A DNA stretch of 64,000 nucleotides from the sequence record PP047754; one strand, 5' to 3'. Source of the DNA: Escherichia phage KEP4. This document shows, piece after piece, positions 3,100-47,171 of the stretch. Every line of letters starts with the position of its first letter. The stretch's first letter is position 1. A program made the translations under genes and the position numbers. The notes under the pieces are model-generated. The model was given only the letters and a program-made list of their open reading frames with translations. It searched no databases and was not told where the DNA came from.

Positions 3100-3140
3100 A
3101 GTTCAACTAAATATAGAAAATTAATTCGGAGATCAAAATC

Positions 3141-3319: not shown

Positions 3320-3637
3320 ATGATGGAAATCACAGAGATCGCCACGTTCGCTGATTTCCTGGCCTCTCGTATGGACGAGCAGCGAGTCATCGATAAAGTG
3401 AACGCTCGTGGTAAACGCCGCCGCCGCTTGAAATGTGCCCCTGGGTTCAAATTGTCGGCTGATGGTTCACGTTGTGAAGTTATGGACGCCAGCGAACGTC
3501 GTGTTCGCAAGATCGGCAACCGCAAAGCCCTCCGCTCTAAAAAGCGTATGGGAATGGGCTATCAACGTAAAATCGAGCGCCGCAAGAAAAAGGCTATGAA
3601 GTTCCGCAAAATGATGGGACTGAGTAAGAACAAGTAA
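3320..3637 (+). CDS. prohead core protein candidate (gp68 position), very basic 105 aa
   Basis: AAGGAG RBS at 3311-3316; Arg/Lys-rich; position between portal and prohead protease as for T4 gene 68. Confidence 0.4.
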   Translation: MMEITEIATFADFLASRMDEQRVIDKVNARGKRRRRLKCAPGFKLSADGSRCEVMDASERRVRKIGNRKALRSKKRMGMGYQRKIERRKKKAMKFRKMMGLSKNK

Positions 3638-3644
3638 GGAGTTT

Positions 3645-4313
3645 ATGATGAAACTGTTGCGTGAGATCACAGCGATAGGGAAGGATCTTCAAATCGGTGA
3701 GGCCACAACCTCAACTGGTGGGAAGGCCATGTTCATCGAAGGTCCGTTTGTGATGTGTAACCAAGTCAACCGTAACGGGCGTAACTATGATCTGCAGAAA
3801 GTGGGTATTCCTGCTGTCGAAGCATACGACAAAGAGTATATCCAAGATCGTCGCGCAATCGGTGAAGTCACACATCCTGACTATCCTTTCCCTAATCTGG
3901 TGGAAGCTGCGCTCAAAACCGAATCCCTTCGCTGGGAAGGCACTAATGCCATCGGTCGGGCGCGAATTTTAAATACACCAAAAGGCCAAATCATACGTGC
4001 ATTGGCCGAAGCAGACTTCAATCTGGCCGTGTCTACACGTGGCCTGGGTGAGACCAAGTCAGTAAACGGTTATGATGACGTTCAGCCTGGCTTTATGCTC
4101 ACCGCTGTTGATGCAGTCGACCGTCCTTCTGGACAAGTTTGTTATGTTAAGGCTGTGAGTGAATCTGTTGAATGGCAGCTTGATGAGGCTTCGGGTATTT
4201 GGATGCCTCGTGATGTTAAAGGGAAAGTTGTAGACCAGTTGGTGAAAACCAATATCCAGGTTGAAGACGATTTCCTGCGCCGCCTTGATGCAGCATTGAA
4301 TCATCTGGGCTGA
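3645..4313 (+). CDS. prohead core scaffold/protease gp21
   Basis: 222 aa; T4 gp21-like size and position immediately upstream of scaffold gp22 and capsid gp23. Confidence 0.75.
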   Translation: MMKLLREITAIGKDLQIGEATTSTGGKAMFIEGPFVMCNQVNRNGRNYDLQKVGIPAVEAYDKEYIQDRRAIGEVTHPDYPFPNLVEAALKTESLRWEGTNAIGRARILNTPKGQIIRALAEADFNLAVSTRGLGETKSVNGYDDVQPGFMLTAVDAVDRPSGQVCYVKAVSESVEWQLDEASGIWMPRDVKGKVVDQLVKTNIQVEDDFLRRLDAALNHLG

Positions 4314-4359: not shown

Positions 4360-5199
4360 ATGAAACCTGAATTGCAAAATCTGTTTGAAGGCGTTAACGG
4401 CATCAGCCCAGATTTCCTGGATAAAGTATCCAATTTGCTGGAATCGAAAGTTGAAGCGGCTCGTCTGAAAGCTATCCAAGAAACCGAAGCAGCTGGCAAC
4501 GTCGAGCGCCTGAATTTGGTAGAATCTCACCAGAAAGAAATCGCCGACCTGAAAGAAAATTTCATTCTGCAATTGGCTGGGAAAGTTGACTCATTCCTCA
4601 ACGCGGTGGTTGAAGAATGGGCTAACAAAAATGCCCCAGCTATTGACGCTCAGATCAAAACTGAAGCTGCTGAACGCTTCCTCACTGGTTTCTCCAACGT
4701 GCTGAAAGAAGCAGGTGTGAGTTTCGCTACTGACCCAGACGGTCAGATTGCTGCCCTCACCAGTCGCCTTGCTGAAGCAGAACAACGCGCCAGCATTGCC
4801 AATACTGAATTGGCTCAGCTCAAAGAAAGTGAAACCAAACGCCAGCGCAATGATGTCATTGATCGTATTTGTGAAGGTATGGTTGACACCAAGAAAGACA
4901 CTGTTGTCAACCTGCTGGAAGGTATTGAATTCCAGACCGAGTCTGAATTTGAATCCCGTGTGCGCACCTTCCGTAACCTGGTAGAAGGCAAAGATGACTT
5001 CTCTGATAAAGTCGGCAAAGACAATGAAAAAGGCAAGCCGGATGGCGACAATTCTGAAAAAGACATCAAAGAAGGTAAAAAACCGAAGAAAGAAGGTGAA
5101 GCCGACGATGATGACGATGACGATGATGACAAAGACGAAGTTGGCAAAGAAGTCAACGAAGCCGTCCGTCGCCAGATCAGTGCTTTGATGAACGGCTAA
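4360..5199 (+). CDS. prohead scaffold protein gp22
   Basis: 279 aa, coiled-coil-like, poly-Asp/Lys-rich C-terminal tail (EADDDDDDDDDKDE); directly upstream of the capsid gene. Confidence 0.7.
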   Translation: MKPELQNLFEGVNGISPDFLDKVSNLLESKVEAARLKAIQETEAAGNVERLNLVESHQKEIADLKENFILQLAGKVDSFLNAVVEEWANKNAPAIDAQIKTEAAERFLTGFSNVLKEAGVSFATDPDGQIAALTSRLAEAEQRASIANTELAQLKESETKRQRNDVIDRICEGMVDTKKDTVVNLLEGIEFQTESEFESRVRTFRNLVEGKDDFSDKVGKDNEKGKPDGDNSEKDIKEGKKPKKEGEADDDDDDDDDKDEVGKEVNEAVRRQISALMNG

Positions 5200-5290: not shown

Positions 5291-6613
5291 ATGACTAAGA
5301 AACTTGTAACCGAAGAAATGCGCAAACAGTGGCTGCCAGTTCTCCAAAAAGAATCTGAAGCTATTCAACCTCTGTCTGCCGAAAACGTAACCATCCGTCT
5401 GATGCAGAACCAGGCTGAATGGAACGCAAAAAACCTGGGCGAATCTGACGCACCTGGTTCTGTGAACAGCACTGTCGGTAAATGGCAGCCAGTTCTGATC
5501 GACATGGCAAAACGTCTGGCGCCGATCAACATCGCGATGGACTTCTTCGGTGTTCAGCCGCTGTCTGGTCCTGACGGTCAGATCTTTGCACTGCGCGCTC
5601 GCCAGGGTGTTGGTGACAGTTCCAACACCGCACAGTCTCGTAAAGAACTGTTCATGCAGGAAGCCGATTCCGGCTATTCCGGTGATGGTACTGTACAGGC
5701 TGGCGACCCGTCAGGCTTTAGTCAGGCTGAAATCGAAGGTTCTGGCTCTGGCGTGACCACTATCGGTAAAGGTATGCCGTCAACCGACGCGGAACTGCTG
5801 GGTACTACCACCAATCCGTGGGCGCGTGTTGGTATCACCGTTCAGAAAGCGACCGTTACTGCCAAGTCTCGCGGCCTGTATGCTGATTACAGCCATGAAC
5901 TGCGTCAGGATATGATGGCAATTCACGGCGAAGACGTGGATAATATCCTGTCTGACGTGATGGTAACTGAAATTCAGGCGGAAATGAACCGTGAATTCAT
6001 CCGTACCATGAACTTCAGTGCTGTTCGCTTCAAAAAATTCGGAACCAACGGTGTTGTTGATATCGCGCAGGACATCTCTGGTCGTTGGGCGCTGGAAAAA
6101 TGGAAGTTCCTGACTTTCATGCTGGAAGTTGAAGCGAACGGTATCGGTGTTGACACCCGTCGTGGTAAAGGCAACCGTGTTCTGTGTTCTCCGAACGTGG
6201 CATCCGCTCTGGCGATGTCTGGCATGCTGGACTATGCTCCAGTTCTGCAGGAAAACACTAAACTGGCTGTTGACCCGACTGGCCAGACCTTCGCTGGTGT
6301 TCTGTCCAACGGTATGCGCGTCTATGTTGACCCGTATGCTGTAGCAGAATATATCACTCTGGCATACAAAGGCGCAACTGCGCTGGATGCTGGTATCTTC
6401 TTCGCGCCGTATGTGCCGCTGGAAATGTACCGCACCCAGGGTGAAACCACCTTCGCTCCGCGTATGGCGTTCAAAACCCGTTACGGCATCTGTGCTAACC
6501 CGTTCGTACAGATTCCGGCTAACCAAGACCCGCAGGTTTACGTGACTGCTGACGGTATCGCTCAAGACAGCAACCCGTATTTCCGCAAAGGTCTGATCAA
6601 ATCTCTGTTCTAA
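5291..6613 (+). CDS. major capsid protein gp23
   Basis: 440 aa; motifs GVQPLSGPDGQIFALRA, FAPYVPL and KTRYGICANPF match T4 gp23; strongly biased, highly-expressed-type codon usage. Confidence 0.9.
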   Translation: MTKKLVTEEMRKQWLPVLQKESEAIQPLSAENVTIRLMQNQAEWNAKNLGESDAPGSVNSTVGKWQPVLIDMAKRLAPINIAMDFFGVQPLSGPDGQIFALRARQGVGDSSNTAQSRKELFMQEADSGYSGDGTVQAGDPSGFSQAEIEGSGSGVTTIGKGMPSTDAELLGTTTNPWARVGITVQKATVTAKSRGLYADYSHELRQDMMAIHGEDVDNILSDVMVTEIQAEMNREFIRTMNFSAVRFKKFGTNGVVDIAQDISGRWALEKWKFLTFMLEVEANGIGVDTRRGKGNRVLCSPNVASALAMSGMLDYAPVLQENTKLAVDPTGQTFAGVLSNGMRVYVDPYAVAEYITLAYKGATALDAGIFFAPYVPLEMYRTQGETTFAPRMAFKTRYGICANPFVQIPANQDPQVYVTADGIAQDSNPYFRKGLIKSLF

Positions 6614-41966: not shown

Positions 41967-42584
41967 ATGACGATGACAACGTTGAAGGCCATGGCCTTGT
42001 CCGTGACCTTTACCATTGCCAGCGGGAGTGTGCACGCTTCCCAAAGTACCACCCAATGTGATTACGAATTTTCTGATCAACAACTTTCAACCATGGCCAC
42101 AGCCTATCACATAGGCAAACAACAAGACCTTGGTTTCACCCTCGCCGCGATATCATGGAGGGAAAGCCGCGCCGGAGAAGATGTTGTATCCATGCGGAAT
42201 AACCTGAAATCGGCTAACATGGGGGCATTTCAAAATCGCGTCCAAACCGTCGGGAAACGGGAGGGATGCAAAACACAGAAGTGTTACGCCAACGTGGCGA
42301 TTAAATTGCTGGTCAATCAAGAGTACGCAGCCAATGCTGCCCTTGATGAAATGAATTTCTGGCTAGAATATCATAACCAAAACATCCGCAAATCCCTTTC
42401 CTCTTACAATGCCGGTTTCAGTCGTAACCAAAAATCCAATTCATACGCTGCTGATGTCGTGAAGAAGGCTAAATATCTTCAACGATGTGTGTCTTTCAAA
42501 GGCATGGCAATAAACCCAAAGGTCGACCCAGGAGTGATCGCCATGAATAAGCGCACGATTGAGAAACTCAAGAGGACCCGATAA
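41967..42584 (+). CDS. secreted lytic transglycosylase (SLT domain), 205 aa
   Basis: Signal-peptide-like N-terminus; AISWRESRAG (catalytic ES), GAFQ, SYNAGFS motifs of family-1 lytic transglycosylases; AAGGAAC RBS. Confidence 0.55.
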   Translation: MTMTTLKAMALSVTFTIASGSVHASQSTTQCDYEFSDQQLSTMATAYHIGKQQDLGFTLAAISWRESRAGEDVVSMRNNLKSANMGAFQNRVQTVGKREGCKTQKCYANVAIKLLVNQEYAANAALDEMNFWLEYHNQNIRKSLSSYNAGFSRNQKSNSYAADVVKKAKYLQRCVSFKGMAINPKVDPGVIAMNKRTIEKLKRTR

Positions 42585-43222
42585 TGAATATCACTCCATC
42601 TCAGACCGGATACGAGCACTTAATGGTGTTTATTGCGATTCAGGGGGCAAAAGAAGGCATCATCAGTTCTGAATATTCTGGAACGATGCGCCTGGCTGAT
42701 TATGTTGCTCCCGAAGCGTTTATCAAGAAATGTATCGACGCATGGTGCCTTTATGCTATCGGCACGTATCCTACTCCTCCGGCAGGTGAGCTACTGTTTA
42801 CCGTTCCGACCCCAGCCGCTGGCGACACAGACGCGATCTTTGCTGATATGTTGGCCAAAGGTTATCTGGCATATGATAGTGCTCACAATGTCTATGACTT
42901 CTCGGCATTGAATCGTATCTTCGGATACACCATAACATCCGAAGCCAATATTCCGGACTATGGAATTCTGGCATGGGGTATTGACGGTCTCGGCGCAACA
43001 TATGCGTCTTCTGATGTTGGTCCTGTATTGATTGACACAGGTGTGACAATGGAGCAATACATGTCACAATTCCCTCAGCATAATGTTACCGGAAGCGACA
43101 TCATTATTGTCTATCCTGGTTCTAATGCGTTGTCCCGCCTGGTGGACGGCTGGAAGCCTCAGCTGAAAGACATCGTTGCTGGAATCAGATTTCACATCCC
43201 TGTCGTCAATCCCACACCTTAA
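42584..43222 (+). CDS. hypothetical protein, 212 aa
   Basis: ATG overlaps previous stop (TAATG). Confidence 0.5.
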   Translation: MNITPSQTGYEHLMVFIAIQGAKEGIISSEYSGTMRLADYVAPEAFIKKCIDAWCLYAIGTYPTPPAGELLFTVPTPAAGDTDAIFADMLAKGYLAYDSAHNVYDFSALNRIFGYTITSEANIPDYGILAWGIDGLGATYASSDVGPVLIDTGVTMEQYMSQFPQHNVTGSDIIIVYPGSNALSRLVDGWKPQLKDIVAGIRFHIPVVNPTP

Positions 43223-43704: not shown

Positions 43705-43730
43705 GCGGGGGCTTGATGCCCCTTTCTTTT
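43705..43730 (+). terminator. rho-independent terminator
   Basis: gggggc-ttgat-gcccc hairpin followed by TTTCTTTT. Confidence 0.55.
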
Positions 43731-43776: not shown

Positions 43777-46164
43777 ATGGCCATCCAATCTTTCTTAAAT
43801 TTCCTTGACGAGTCCAAACAATTGGACGAAGCGTTTAACTCCGCTCCATACGAATTGACTTTCGGCAAGAAAAATGCTGGTGACATTTTCTTCACGTTCG
43901 TAGACGAAGATGAAAAAGAATTCCGCATTCAATTTTATACCCCGCAGGGGCTGGGCAAGAACGTTCGTCAGGTCTTCATAGGCCAGAAACGTGGTTCAAC
44001 CTATCCAGACGCAATCGGTCGTTTCAAAAACCCAATGCGTGTCATCGCATCCATGATCGAAGCGACTAAACAATTCATGGCGACACCGCTGGGTAAAACC
44101 ATTGATGGGTTTGCGATTAACTTCTCCAAGAAAGCTCTAGAACGCGGAACGACGTTACTCCCAAAAATTATTCGTCAATCTGGTCTGAAGCAGAAACTCA
44201 ACGTCATGGATCTGACTTATACCCCAATCCCTGACCGTGCCTTCGTATGGGTTGTACGCAAAGGCAAGGATCCTGCTCAGGTATTCGATGGTCCGAAAAT
44301 GAAAGGCGTGACTTGGGACGACCCAGACAAAGTCGGTGACGTTCCTGACCAGGCTGCTCGTGACGCCGCACTACAAGGTGACATGGATGATTTGAGCCAA
44401 TCCATAAATGCCGATTCTCGCTGGATTCTGACCAAAGCTGATCATACTCAGCCTATGCTGGTCTGGTCTGGTAAAGAACGTGGGCGGACTATTACCGCCA
44501 ATATCGCACCTCACGCGAATGAACCTGGTGTGTATGCTGGTAGTATCATGAACGAGAAACGGATCCGCGCTCAATCCCCAGACGCTATTGTACGCCAACT
44601 GGGATTACCGCAGATCCCTGTGAATATTCTGAATGATTTCACCAAGCAGTCGTCCATCTTCTGGAAAGAGATGACGGGGGATTCTGGAAAAATAGACATG
44701 CAGACTTTGCCAAAAACAGGATCTGTGGATGACTTACGAAATCAGGGTTATATTGCTCGCCTTCTGGGGATTGTAGACACATATGCTCCACAACAGGTCG
44801 GTATGTATGCAGGTGAGAAACTAACACGAATCGGCGCGGGCAAATATCGTACTTCGGGTGGTCTGGACATTCAGGTTTATTTCTGGGGAATTGTCAACGG
44901 AAAACTTTCTGTAGAAGTAGTATCAGATTTGTCTGGTCATGACCAACTTATGCTGGAAGGAGACGTGAAAAACTCCGCTTATGAAATAGTGGGCGCAATC
45001 TCCCGTGCAGCCGATTCTCAATTTGCTGGAGAAGTAGAATGCCGTGTGGTTCCTATCAATAACGCCCCATATCCGATTCAAAAAATTTCCCGTTCCCAGG
45101 GATATTCTTACGTTGATTGTGGTTCTTTCACATTGAAGATCGCTGACGCTCTGCTGAATCGGTTTACCTTGGGCAAGGCGGTCAAACTTGATCTGATGAA
45201 AGAGTTTCCTCGTACAACATTCAAAGTCCGCTATGATTGGCGTGGAAAAGATACTCTGTTGGTTCAATCTTCCGACGAGCGTACTATCTTTGGTGAAATC
45301 AACACCAATTCCAGTGAAAATGCAGTGATCACTGCAAACATCAAAGTACCAAGCAACGCTAAATTTTTTGGTGAAACCGTTCATGGCTTCTCTGTGGCTT
45401 GGGACTTCCAGTTCCCTGCGGGTAGCCAGCTGCAAGCCGCACGGTTCGTTACGAACGTGACTTACGACTTCGATCGTAATAAGGCCAACATCACGACCAT
45501 GCTGACAGAAAATGGCCGAAATGTAGTCAATAGCAGCGGATATGACATTCAGTTATCTGTCAAGTCTGTGCAAGATGCATTGAATGAGACTTCACAACGC
45601 CTGAAAGACGCTGCGGCTCAATTGAGCCACCTCAGTTCATCAAACTATAACCCGAACAAGCTGTTCCTGAATGATATCACCGTCAGTAAGTTTGGTGCAA
45701 TTATGTTCCAAGACAAAGATCTGGCACAGTCCAAAAACCGCACGGCAGTCATTGATGCTTTGGCTCGGGCGAAAGATCAGGTCGCTGGTGGTAAGAATGC
45801 AGGCGATCTGGCCACCTATGCCGGATCCATTCGTGATAGCGCTCCTAATGGACGAGATCTGGATTGGCAGGTATACACAGCCAGTAATGGTACAGTTCTG
45901 AATGTTGCCTGGGATATCACTTTCCGTCGCAATACGACCGAAGGAGCATATCGTGAATTCAAGGATCAGATCAACCGTGCCAACCAATACCTGCAAACGG
46001 TATACAACGACGCGAAATCTAAAGGCTATAATCCTACCGAGCCAAATCTCATGACTCTTGAACGCGCTCGCCAATCCGACGAATGGGCTATGAGTAATGG
46101 TGATAGTGCATACAGTGAATATGAACAATCGCTGGGTGGTAATCTTCAGATTAGTCTGAAATAA
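43777..46164 (+). CDS. large hypothetical protein, 795 aa; candidate capsid-packaged internal protein
   Basis: AGGAGA RBS; N-terminus MAIQSFLNFLDE resembles a T4 capsid-targeting sequence with an LxE cleavage site; shares LGLPxIPxNxLxxF motif with the next gene. Confidence 0.45.
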   Translation: MAIQSFLNFLDESKQLDEAFNSAPYELTFGKKNAGDIFFTFVDEDEKEFRIQFYTPQGLGKNVRQVFIGQKRGSTYPDAIGRFKNPMRVIASMIEATKQFMATPLGKTIDGFAINFSKKALERGTTLLPKIIRQSGLKQKLNVMDLTYTPIPDRAFVWVVRKGKDPAQVFDGPKMKGVTWDDPDKVGDVPDQAARDAALQGDMDDLSQSINADSRWILTKADHTQPMLVWSGKERGRTITANIAPHANEPGVYAGSIMNEKRIRAQSPDAIVRQLGLPQIPVNILNDFTKQSSIFWKEMTGDSGKIDMQTLPKTGSVDDLRNQGYIARLLGIVDTYAPQQVGMYAGEKLTRIGAGKYRTSGGLDIQVYFWGIVNGKLSVEVVSDLSGHDQLMLEGDVKNSAYEIVGAISRAADSQFAGEVECRVVPINNAPYPIQKISRSQGYSYVDCGSFTLKIADALLNRFTLGKAVKLDLMKEFPRTTFKVRYDWRGKDTLLVQSSDERTIFGEINTNSSENAVITANIKVPSNAKFFGETVHGFSVAWDFQFPAGSQLQAARFVTNVTYDFDRNKANITTMLTENGRNVVNSSGYDIQLSVKSVQDALNETSQRLKDAAAQLSHLSSSNYNPNKLFLNDITVSKFGAIMFQDKDLAQSKNRTAVIDALARAKDQVAGGKNAGDLATYAGSIRDSAPNGRDLDWQVYTASNGTVLNVAWDITFRRNTTEGAYREFKDQINRANQYLQTVYNDAKSKGYNPTEPNLMTLERARQSDEWAMSNGDSAYSEYEQSLGGNLQISLK

Positions 46165-46215
46165 GTCATAGCCCCTTCGGGGGCTAAATACATCAAAATC
46201 CTTAGGAGATCCACG

Positions 46216-46761
46216 ATGAAACCGTTTATCGAATATTTTAAAGAACAAGCTCAACAACCGCAAACTCATGGCGGCATACAAGGCAAAAGTGTAACCATCA
46301 CCAAACAGGCCGACGGAACCCAATGGTGTACTGGTGCCACCGTGACCCAGATCACTCCAGATAATCAGGCCGACATCTATAATCTGGAATTGACTAATGG
46401 CAACACCATCAAAGTGAAGCTAACTCCAGACCAGACCCACGGCATTACCCAAGGCCAAGAAGTCGTTGCCGTCCATGATGGTTTTGAATTTTTCTTCGGC
46501 AAGTCAGCTGACAAAGGTCAGGTTACTGAAGCGGAAGGCTGGCGTTTCGTCGGTGACCGTGGCGCTCATATTCTGATGTATGACGCAAAAGTTGGCGGTG
46601 CCTCCACTATCCTTCGCAGTCCAACAGATCGAACCAAATTTGTTGGTGGTCTCATCAACGGTAGAAAAATTTTGGGTAATTCCCCAGAAGAACTGGCGGC
46701 AAAATTAGGTCTTCCAAAAATTCCTGATAATTTATTAAAATCGTTTTTTGGTAAAAAGTGA
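46216..46761 (+). CDS. hypothetical protein, 181 aa; candidate internal head protein
   Basis: N-terminus MKPFIEYFKE closely resembles the T4 internal-protein CTS MKTYQEFIAE; C-terminal LGLPKIPDNLLKSF motif shared with the 795-aa protein. Confidence 0.45.
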   Translation: MKPFIEYFKEQAQQPQTHGGIQGKSVTITKQADGTQWCTGATVTQITPDNQADIYNLELTNGNTIKVKLTPDQTHGITQGQEVVAVHDGFEFFFGKSADKGQVTEAEGWRFVGDRGAHILMYDAKVGGASTILRSPTDRTKFVGGLINGRKILGNSPEELAAKLGLPKIPDNLLKSFFGKK

Positions 46762-46773
46762 TTATAAAATACA

Positions 46774-46805
46774 ATCCCCCTAAATACAGGGGGATTTTCT
46801 TTTTA
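46774..46805 (+). terminator. rho-independent terminator
   Basis: atccccct-aaatac-agggggat hairpin followed by TTTCTTTTT. Confidence 0.55.
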
Positions 46806-46817
46806 GGGGTAAATATC

Positions 46818-47171
46818 ATGGTCAATGCGAGTATATTCATCAACCGTGGACTGCTTGCTATAGCCCACTCTCATGCCCTCCACTTCGTTACAACGTCCTA
46901 TGCCAAGCACAAGGCACTCGGGGAGTTCTACGGGGAACTGGAGGACTTGCTGGATACCTTTACGGAAGCGTATATTGGTGCGGGAGGTATATACATTCCA
47001 GGATTCGAGAACATCAAATTGTACAATCCTGAACCGATATCGTATATCAACAGCGTGGTCATCGACGTTAATGGGATCTACAATCAGTGTGATAGCCATT
47101 TACAAAACACGCTTGATGAAATCAAAACTTTGTGCTATCAAACGATTTACAAACTGAAGCAATTGTCCTAA
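46818..47171 (+). CDS. hypothetical protein, 117 aa
   Basis: ATG within ORF-track frame 46758. Confidence 0.4.
   Translation: MVNASIFINRGLLAIAHSHALHFVTTSYAKHKALGEFYGELEDLLDTFTEAYIGAGGIYIPGFENIKLYNPEPISYINSVVIDVNGIYNQCDSHLQNTLDEIKTLCYQTIYKLKQLS

Follow-up and report, generated by a model that had tools for sequence, protein, structure and literature searches.

Two adjacent genes of Escherichia phage KEP4, which encode proteins of 795 and 181 amino acids (aa), probably specify internal head (ejection) proteins of the type known from phage T4. Each protein would be loaded into the prohead by a short N-terminal leader, trimmed by a gp21-like protease and ejected together with the DNA, the larger one carrying a cargo other than an ADP-ribosyltransferase (ART). 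The stretch analysed comprises 64,000 nucleotides (nt) of sequence record PP047754; we refer to it as the window, and all coordinates are positions within it. The region matches phages of the genus Kuttervirus (Ackermannviridae, Vi1-like), with an identity that reaches 98.6% for Salmonella phage ISTP3. A first-pass annotation of this DNA had singled out the two open reading frames (ORFs), and their coordinates, lengths and N-terminal sequences are exactly as it gave them:

43777..46164, + strand: gene for the 795-aa virion protein, which starts MAIQSFLNFLDE; orthologues are Vi01_094c, Sajous1 gp214 and Det7 gp73
46216..46761, + strand: gene for the 181-aa virion protein, which starts MKPFIEYFKE; orthologues are Vi01_093c, Sajous1 gp215 and LIMEstone1 ORF80

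Neither protein falls in a Pfam family, and the PHROGs of the pair (3867 and 4048) both lack a functional label. The layout of the 795-aa protein is a leader, an Alt-N-like domain, a variable cargo and a conserved C-terminal tail (C-tail). We infer leader cleavage at the sites named below, a location inside the capsid, ejection and effector function from the resemblance of both N termini to the T4 capsid targeting sequence (CTS), the homology of the larger protein to T4 Alt and the detection of orthologues in purified virions.

Leaders match the T4 capsid targeting sequence

T4 comparator sequences were taken from sequence records. The precursors of the internal proteins (IPs) IPII and IPIII open MKTYQEFIAE↓A (arrows mark cleavage sites and candidate sites), and their annotation marks residues −10 to −1 as cut away (X04567.1); Alt opens MELITE↓LFDE, with the remark '6 amino acids cleaved off' (X15811.1). 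The T4 CTS consists of the first 10 residues of IPIII, in which residues 4 and 7 are the main determinants of targeting, and residues 8 and 10 determine processing (PMC9026906). The corresponding segments in KEP4 are:

43777..43830, + strand: predicted N-terminal propeptide of the 795-aa protein, residues 1–18, MAIQSFLNFLDESKQLDE; candidate sites LDE12↓S and LDE18↓A
46216..46245, + strand: CTS-like leader of the 181-aa protein, MKPFIEYFKE, residues 1–10; predicted cleavage after E10

The leader of the 181-aa protein matches the CTS at the positions mapped for targeting (F4 and Y7) and for processing (F8 and E10). All 26 homologues of this protein share M1, F4 and E10; an aromatic residue stands at position 7 in all but one, which has His, and position 8 holds F, L, M or Y. 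Distant homologues open MKKFSEFLAE. In the 795-aa protein the CTS pattern is displaced by +2 (F6, F9, L10 and E12) and is followed by an invariant QLDE18↓AF. A 32-sequence alignment of the family shows F6, F9 and E18 to be invariant and E12 to be at least 90% conserved, and AlphaFold2 (AF2) predicts a low-confidence helix over residues 3–21. The likeness of both N termini to the T4 CTS, as claimed by the first-pass annotation, is borne out at functionally mapped positions and exceeds chance. Its claim of a cleavage-site motif stands for the presence of (L/I)-x-E sites in the 795-aa leader; the best-conserved predicted site is LDE18↓A, not the LDE12 that it had proposed.

The leader pattern is rare. 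A six-frame scan of the window for [FYW]xx[FYLW][LIMFVY]xE near the start (residues 1–15) of ORFs that begin with ATG and encode at least 45 aa found it exclusively at the 795-aa and 181-aa genes. A scan of the complete genome of phage Sajous1, a close relative, returned five annotated starts, belonging to the membrane protein gp48, to gp116 (MKTFLEFYRE), to gp214 and gp215, which are the orthologues of the 795-aa and 181-aa proteins, and to gp216 (MKGFPDFLKE↓A). Among 203 Sajous1 genes predicted heuristically, four leader N termini compare with 0.63 expected (Poisson P = 0.004), and the form K-x-[FY]-x-x-[FYW]-[FLIMVY]-x-E occurs nowhere at internal positions in this phage. All four non-membrane leader proteins are present in CsCl-purified Sajous1 virions, with 10 spectra for gp116, 196 for gp214, 32 for gp215 and 20 for gp216 (PMC10892097).

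One of these proteins, gp116, is an ART-PolyVal ADP-ribosyltransferase (E=9e-11) and, as a virion ART with a CTS-like leader, can be regarded by analogy as a functional counterpart of T4 Alt. It is 149 aa long, has the most T4-like leader (MKTFLEFYRE↓S) and is encoded outside the window, at Sajous1 MW021757.1 71147-72090. Its acidic neighbour gp115 (31 spectra) opens MPISKLFE↓A, and gp116 and gp115 are candidates for an Alt-like injected enzyme plus a partner or immunity protein.

The 795-aa protein has an Alt-type N-terminal domain

Behind its leader, the 795-aa protein is divided as follows:

43831..44316, + strand: Alt-N-like domain, residues ~19–180, basic (pI 9.7), homologous to T4 Alt ~7–180
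44413..44676, + strand: small beta-plus-two-helix module, residues ~213–300, after a disordered linker (184–212)
44677..46164, + strand: cargo region, residues ~301–795, with two well-predicted alpha/beta domains and then the conserved C-tail ...AYSEYEQSLGGNLQISLK

The AF2 model of the protein (predicted local distance difference test (pLDDT) 75.7) contains an alpha/beta domain at ~36–180, the linker at 184–212, the module at ~213–300, which holds a motif shared with the 181-aa protein, and two larger domains. A Foldseek search of viral models returned Ackermannviridae homologues, probability-1.0 matches to three Alt RNA-polymerase ADP-ribosylases of T4-like phages, and matches to large phage proteins with zeta-toxin or deaminase domains.

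A word-index homology search with Alt residues 1–177 returned just two proteins, and we therefore built a profile from seven Alt N termini in phage records and compared it with an 89-sequence profile of the KEP4-type N-domain. Profile–profile alignment (hhalign) matched residues 14–179 of the KEP4 protein with T4 Alt 2–180 over 162 columns (probability 94.1%, E=1.3e-7), with a score of 54.7 against 13.8±2.1 for column-shuffled and 18.6±2.4 for block-shuffled profiles. The match persisted after removal of the leader and junction (E=1.2e-6). Alignment with T4 Alt, a check that the first-pass annotation had named, came out in favour of a homologous N-terminal domain. The alignment places the Alt cleavage site ITE6↓L, which is experimentally established (PMC5694885), opposite LDE18↓A of the 795-aa protein.

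An exhaustive phmmer search with residues 1–193 gave 91 protein clusters, in which the domain always lies at the extreme N terminus (start 2–50) of proteins ranging from 279 to 1677 aa. Such a placement is the hallmark of a conserved carrier at the N terminus with variable cargo joined to it. Directly ahead of the domain, 88 of 90 representatives have hydrophobic-x-E↓[A/S][F/L][N/D]..PY, with L (61), I (17), F (6), V (3) or M (1) at P3 and mostly A (70) or S (16) at P1′; the leader has a median length of 17 residues, and the junction is also present in homologues from Vibrio and Aeromonas phages. Proteins containing '...YHGT...' beside the Vibrio-phage homologues were considered as ARTs and dropped, as they had no Pfam support.

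Behind the same N-domain, an ADPrib_exo_Tox domain is found in 5 of 61 family members, others have lethal-factor-like or DinI-like domains, and three proteins (P0210, P0209 and P0216) match both the KEP4 N-domain (E ~1e-14 to 1e-16) and the T4 Alt ART domain (E=4e-15 to 1e-5). The 795-aa protein itself has no Pfam ADPrib_exo_Tox match at E<=0.1 and no significant ART fold match, and we therefore assign it to a wider Alt-N-domain family rather than treat it as an Alt orthologue. Among polyvalent-protein domains none scored above threshold, the best being LPD3 (E=0.028), whose 15 bits fall short of the cutoff of 27. Sequence in the middle and towards the C terminus varies even among close relatives, with 50–97% identity and mosaic lengths of 689–964 aa.

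Despite the differing middle, the C-tail ...AYSEYEQSLGGNLQISLK (window ~46055–46161) is kept across most of the family, in which a second type, ...GGMGHALFLNVW, also occurs. The sole Glu sites in ...AYSEYEQSLGGNLQISLK have Tyr or Glu at P3. T4 Alt is processed C-terminally at LTE-619, and by analogy with the C-terminal 63 residues of Alt the C-tail could be a C-terminal propeptide or a docking element.

Orthologues of both proteins are found in virions

The virion evidence consists of published mass spectrometry (MS) of orthologues in LIMEstone1, Vi01 and Sajous1 rather than of KEP4 itself. For LIMEstone1, a cluster of 'unknown structural proteins' was reported at ORF78–85 (PMC3296691); Vi01_094c, 093c and 096c are labelled 'phage associated protein'; and the 196 spectra of Sajous1 gp214 are the third-highest count for that phage, with 32 for gp215 (PMC10892097). 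These three independent studies detect orthologues of both proteins in purified virions, and the virion part of the first-pass proposal, that the two are packaged proteins, holds, as do its other parts in so far as computation or published work can address them. Sequence-profile searches of the PDB found neither protein in a solved virion structure.

The LIMEstone1 gene of the 795-aa family is apparently split into ORF81 (18.8 kDa) and ORF82 (40.9 kDa), the products of which were both detected by MS (PMC3296691 Table 2; BFVD I0J2V5). Judging from sizes and position, these are probably two parts of a homologue of the 795-aa protein, and the 18.8-kDa product is probably the Alt-N-like domain, which would imply that this domain is kept in virions. 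Phage XF4, which belongs to the same species as LIMEstone1, has a single 531-aa ORF, and the split may be a sequencing frameshift.

Head-assembly machinery and the proposed route

The window encodes a Portal_T4-type portal protein and the following components of T4-type head assembly:

3645..4313, + strand: prohead protease of the T4 gp21 family (Peptidase_S77, E=3.6e-28)
4360..5199, + strand: prohead scaffold of the T4 gp22 family (T4_CASP, E=2.3e-44), N terminus MKPELQNLFE↓G
5291..6613, + strand: major capsid protein of the Gp23 family (E=2.5e-122), candidate maturation site NLGE51↓S

We propose that each of the two proteins is made with a short amphipathic N-terminal propeptide that serves as a capsid-targeting sequence and would, as the prohead assembles, hold it on a core of the gp22-like scaffold protein (4360..5199), with which the leaders are predicted to dock. 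Once the shell has closed, the gp21-family protease (3645..4313), which is the enzyme predicted to remove the leaders, would cut after hydrophobic-x-Glu sites. The mature proteins would then be trapped in the capsid with the DNA and leave with it through the tail at infection.

The 795-aa protein would be cut at LDE18↓A and possibly at LDE12↓S, leaving the basic Alt-N-like domain as a conserved carrier with ~600 residues of lineage-variable cargo behind it, in a non-ART member of the Alt N-domain family. Its predicted neo-N-termini are AFNSAPYELTFGK after E18 and SKQLDEAFNSAPYELTFGK after E12, as against AIQSFLNFLDESK for the uncut N-terminal peptide. The 181-aa protein would be IP-like, with its leader cut at FKE10↓Q ahead of a conserved acidic domain; the predicted neo-N-terminus is QAQQPQTHGGIQGK after E10, and the uncut N-terminal peptide would be KPFIEYFK. 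A second junction in this protein, VTE105↓A, would probably release a small, basic and swappable C-terminal module.

Published data on the relative AG3 bear on maturation of the capsid protein. The AG3 capsid band gave 64% peptide coverage with no peptide before residue 65 (PMC3121705, supplement 3); three good tryptic peptides from residues 13–47 are absent from the map, and other virion bands show residue-2 N-terminal peptides (PMC3121705). The map is consistent with T4-like propeptide cleavage at NLGE51↓S, the neo-N-terminus itself lying outside the observed peptides, and the neo-N-terminal peptide predicted after NLGE51 is SDAPGSVNSTVGK. The size of the AG3 band, 44.6 kDa against 47.9 kDa predicted, is not decisive, as other bands run small too.

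A small, very basic, prohead-core-like protein is encoded just upstream of the protease, at 3320–3637 (+ strand): MMEITEIATFADFLASRMDE...RGKRRRRLKC.... Two sites lie near its N terminus, MDE20 and the Alt-like ITE6; it is a probable further substrate of the protease.

The 181-aa protein is modular and shares an element with its neighbour

The mature part of the 181-aa protein falls into two modules, and one element recurs in both proteins:

46246..46530, + strand: conserved acidic N-domain of the 181-aa protein, residues 11–105, pI 5.2, ending at an invariant ...GQVTE105
46531..46758, + strand: variable basic C-terminal module, residues 106–181, pI 10.1
44533..44640, + strand: copy of a 36-residue element in the 795-aa protein, residues 253–288, ...SPDAIVRQLGLPQIPVNILNDF
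46639..46746, + strand: copy of the element in the 181-aa protein, residues 142–177, ...SPEELAAKLGLPKIPDNLLKSF

One homologue, P0146, stops exactly at the VTE105 junction. In most relatives the C-terminal module is swapped for unrelated modules, and in P0143 and P0145 it is replaced by a module of the gp216 type. The free-standing gp216 after its leader (LKE↓AKVDHR...) and P0143 and P0145 after VTE↓AKIDHR... align with 48–49% identity (E=2e-18 and 3e-21), with their junctions in register. The contig with P0143 lacks a separate gp216 gene and carries three consecutive leader-bearing genes. The same cargo, in other words, rides behind either a bare 10-residue leader or the N-domain of the 181-aa family, and both junctions read hydrophobic-x-Glu↓Ala; this match argues that the junctions are protease sites as well as module boundaries.

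In the window, positions 46762–46817 are without the 79–80-aa gp216 gene (MKGFPDFLKE↓A) that lies between the 181-aa gene and the gene for the DUF5856 protein in Sajous1, barely and Guerrero. The C-terminal module found here (106–181) is the type that holds the element in common with the 795-aa protein. A local alignment of the two copies spans 36 residues at 39% identity (E=7e-8), giving statistical weight to the LGLPxIPxNxLxxF motif that the first-pass annotation had seen in both proteins. The LGLPxIP motif is not universal and occurs in a subset within each of the two families. Extension of the element to a whole module of ~78 residues was not significant (shuffle p=0.85 and 0.21), and the claim is kept to the 36 residues, which we propose represent one shuffled sub-module.

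Points against, and alternative explanations

Several observations weigh against the internal-protein reading. Leader cleavage is, in both proteins, a prediction at the level of sequence; P3 is Phe at the leader site of the 181-aa protein and Val at the internal VTE105 site, as against Leu or Ile for T4 gp21, for which these two residues are canonical. For the 181-aa protein, AF2 gave a model too poor to use (pLDDT 42). A shallow profile of 13 sequences matched Alt with a P of only 0.014, such that the claim of homology rests on the 89-sequence profile. Pfam and fold searches identified no enzymatic or inhibitor domain in the cargo of the 795-aa protein, for which 'effector', in the sense of the host-takeover or anti-defence factors suggested by the first-pass annotation, is therefore an analogy. 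Spectral counts do not separate head from neck, tail or baseplate; the high abundance of the 795-aa orthologue leaves room for a structural role inside the head; and the neighbouring virion proteins DUF7270 and DUF5856 have no CTS-like leader.

The brevity of the motifs, together with the Phe at P3 and the prediction of cleavage from sequence, would suit an N-terminal likeness that is mere coincidence, with the proteins joining the virion by another route or being contaminants, and unprocessed in either case. Such a coincidence is already disfavoured, and we regard it as very improbable. Genome scans find the motif seldom, and then mainly on virion proteins (P=0.004); even divergent homologues keep F4 and E10 without exception, and the junction is kept in 88 of 90 clusters; moreover, the Alt homology is independent of the leader (E=1.2e-6), and three independent virion preparations detect the proteins.

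The proteins might also follow the same targeting and processing route and serve a structural or morphogenetic role, in core assembly, DNA condensation or ejection, like T4 gp67 and gp68 or internal proteins bound in bulk to DNA. The 795-aa orthologue is very abundant (196 Sajous1 spectra, and 55% coverage with 23 peptides for ORF81, the probable LIMEstone1 orthologue), and the family occurs throughout the Ackermannviridae with its gene neighbourhood kept, in phages of Vibrio and Aeromonas too. No enzymatic domain was found in it, and the basic Alt-N-like domain (pI 9.7) and the C-terminal module of the 181-aa protein (pI 10.1) would suit DNA association. However, the high variability of the middle and C-terminal parts is the pattern typical of arms-race cargo, relatives have ART, lethal-factor-like and DinI-like domains coupled to this N-domain, and T4 can assemble without its IPs and Alt (PMC5694885). 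On balance, we consider a structural role unlikely.

A third alternative comes from the literature. Harris et al. 2024 named the large protein a 'tail completion protein' and proposed a tail-borne 'ferrojan horse', an iron-piracy entry system in which it would act with the 181-aa orthologue, annotated as 'molybdate-binding', and the ferritin-like DUF5856 protein. The pair would then belong to the tail, neck or baseplate. For a tail-completion role of the 795-aa protein we found no sequence, profile or fold support and no gp3- or gp15-type homology, and gp3-like and gp15-like genes are annotated separately, elsewhere in Sajous1. We think this placement improbable, and take the two proteins as candidate internal head proteins in what follows.

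Comparison with known systems

The closest parallel to the 795-aa protein is T4 Alt. The N-terminal domains are homologous, and in both proteins an (L/I)-x-E propeptide end stands directly before the domain, in register with ITE6↓. The sizes are similar (682 aa for Alt and 795 aa here), gp21-, gp22- and gp23-type machinery is present, orthologues are found in virions and some members of the N-domain family are true Alt-type ARTs. Unlike Alt, the 795-aa protein has no ART domain and instead has ~600 residues of non-ART cargo; it appears far more abundant in virions (Alt is present at ~40 copies in T4), and its leader is longer (18 residues against 6) and is also IP-CTS-like.

The 181-aa protein resembles T4 IPI, IPII and IPIII. 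The T4 internal proteins and their capsid targeting sequence are reportedly the subject of work by Mullaney and Black in 1996, and the IP loci of T-even phages are hypervariable. Aromatic residues occupy positions 4 and 7 of the 10-residue leader, position 8 is hydrophobic and position 10 is Glu; the protein is small, with a variable mature part behind a conserved leader, and its orthologues are in virions. Its gene lies outside the main structural cluster, beside other leader-bearing genes. In contrast to the T4 proteins, it has Phe rather than Ile at P3, and its mature part belongs to no Pfam family, no direct comparison with IP sequences having been made; it also has a 95-residue acidic domain and a second predicted junction, VTE105, neither of which is described for T4 IPs.

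Polyvalent and MuF-fused effectors (Iyer et al. 2017; 2022 NAD-ADPr survey) similarly combine a conserved head-associated N-module with variable cargo delivered with the DNA, and within this phage group Sajous1 gp116 is itself a virion ART-PolyVal protein that shares the leader. The carrier here differs in being an Alt-N-like domain with a predicted cleavable leader, not MuF, portal or DarA. Polyvalent proteins have 2–15 catalogued domains, whereas most members of the Alt-N family have one cargo region, with a weak, subthreshold LPD3 match in the KEP4 protein. Finally, the ejection (E) proteins of the giant phages phiKZ, 201phi2-1 and SPN3US are head-internal, and their propeptides are removed after x-x-Glu by a gp21-related protease, with several cleavage sites possible. 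In these phiKZ-type proteins, unlike the KEP4 pair, P3 is preferentially small (A/S/G-x-E) and the propeptides often exceed 100 residues, and no sequence relationship to them was detected here.

Genomic surroundings

The pair sits between gp46/47-like recombination-nuclease genes and the primase. Hairpins predicted around it are:

43707..43723, + strand: terminator-like hairpin 5′ of the gene pair
46169..46191, + strand: intergenic hairpin, overlapping a CTAAATAC motif, 32 nt upstream of the start codon of the 181-aa gene
46773..46796, + strand: strong terminator-like hairpin closing the two-gene unit

From this arrangement, the 795-aa and 181-aa genes appear to be one unit bounded by the terminator-like hairpins at 43707–43723 and 46773–46796. 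CTAAATAC occurs five times in the window, always on the + strand (4325, 13000, 46184, 46780 and 61198), against 1.2 copies expected, and 0 of 100 shuffles reached five. Further copies of CTAAATA without the full CTAAATAC lie at 3107, 26005, 41882 and 42469. Seven of the nine CTAAATA copies stand 29–38 nt upstream of a start codon, ahead of the small core-like gene, the scaffold gene, the 181-aa gene, the DUF5856 gene and three others. CTAAATAcCcc is an already known ViI-like regulatory motif (PMC7283392), and the CBA120 paper states that the late promoter of these phages was not identified; the CTAAATA-type motif may be the late promoter of the family. The T4 late promoter TATAAATA is not enriched in the window (3 matches against 1.6 expected).

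The pair is flanked by genes for a DUF7270 protein (212 aa, E=1e-124; 42584–43222, + strand) and, on the other side, a ferritin/Dps-like DUF5856 protein (46818–47171, + strand). Counterparts of both are among the LIMEstone1 'unknown structural proteins', and in Sajous1 10 spectra were assigned to gp217, the orthologue of the DUF5856 protein. A 205-aa protein encoded at 41967–42584 (+ strand) is commonly annotated as 'RegB', a label that looks wrong: the protein is SLT lytic-transglycosylase-like (Pfam SLT E=2e-4), with a signal-peptide-like N terminus MTMTTLKAMALSVTFTIASGSVHA↓SQ, and its Sajous1 orthologue gp211 has 31 spectra in purified virions. Near the start of the window, a 152-aa ORF (327–785, + strand) lies directly upstream of the tail tube gene; it corresponds to Sajous1 gp150, a 'putative endonuclease', and to the tail-tube-adjacent homing endonuclease of LIMEstone1, a likeness by position only.

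Implications

The proposed mechanism itself is the classical T4 one. Among the papers searched we found none joining "capsid targeting" with Ackermannviridae, and a 2024 review of the family is silent on proteins of the internal, prohead or ADP-ribosylating kinds. Effectors packaged in heads are the topic of two surveys, which treat the ART domain of Alt and MuF fusions; the passages searched in them mention neither the N-terminal region of Alt as a carrier module nor Ackermannviridae.

A broader idea, which we find plausible but somewhat short of likely, is that the Alt N-domain with its cleavable (L/I)-x-E leader is a general, portable carrier for head loading and ejection, distributed among Straboviridae, Ackermannviridae and uncultured relatives and bearing ART, lethal-factor-like, DinI-like and further cargo. 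The prohead protease would then double as a polyprotein processor at hydrophobic-x-Glu junctions such as VTE105, releasing small basic cargo peptides inside the capsid. A carrier-domain hypothesis would apply to the first 180 residues of T4 Alt, a part so far uncharacterised and common to at least 91 clusters with variable cargo, and the Alt-N family would constitute a catalogue of candidate injected effectors.

The exact processing sites predicted here could be confirmed by a re-search of existing mass-spectrometry data. Like the CTS in T4, the 10–18-residue leader might be employed to load these phages with foreign proteins for delivery. Ackermannviridae (Kuttervirus, Agtrevirus and Limestonevirus) are common in biocontrol, diagnostics and engineering, and more than half of their genes are without an assigned function. 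Our reading gives a conserved cluster of abundant virion proteins a testable role and contradicts the published "tail completion / ferrojan horse" annotation. On the broader carrier idea, the abundant protein of 86 kDa in Kuttervirus would count among the major factors injected, possibly one that acts against host defences.

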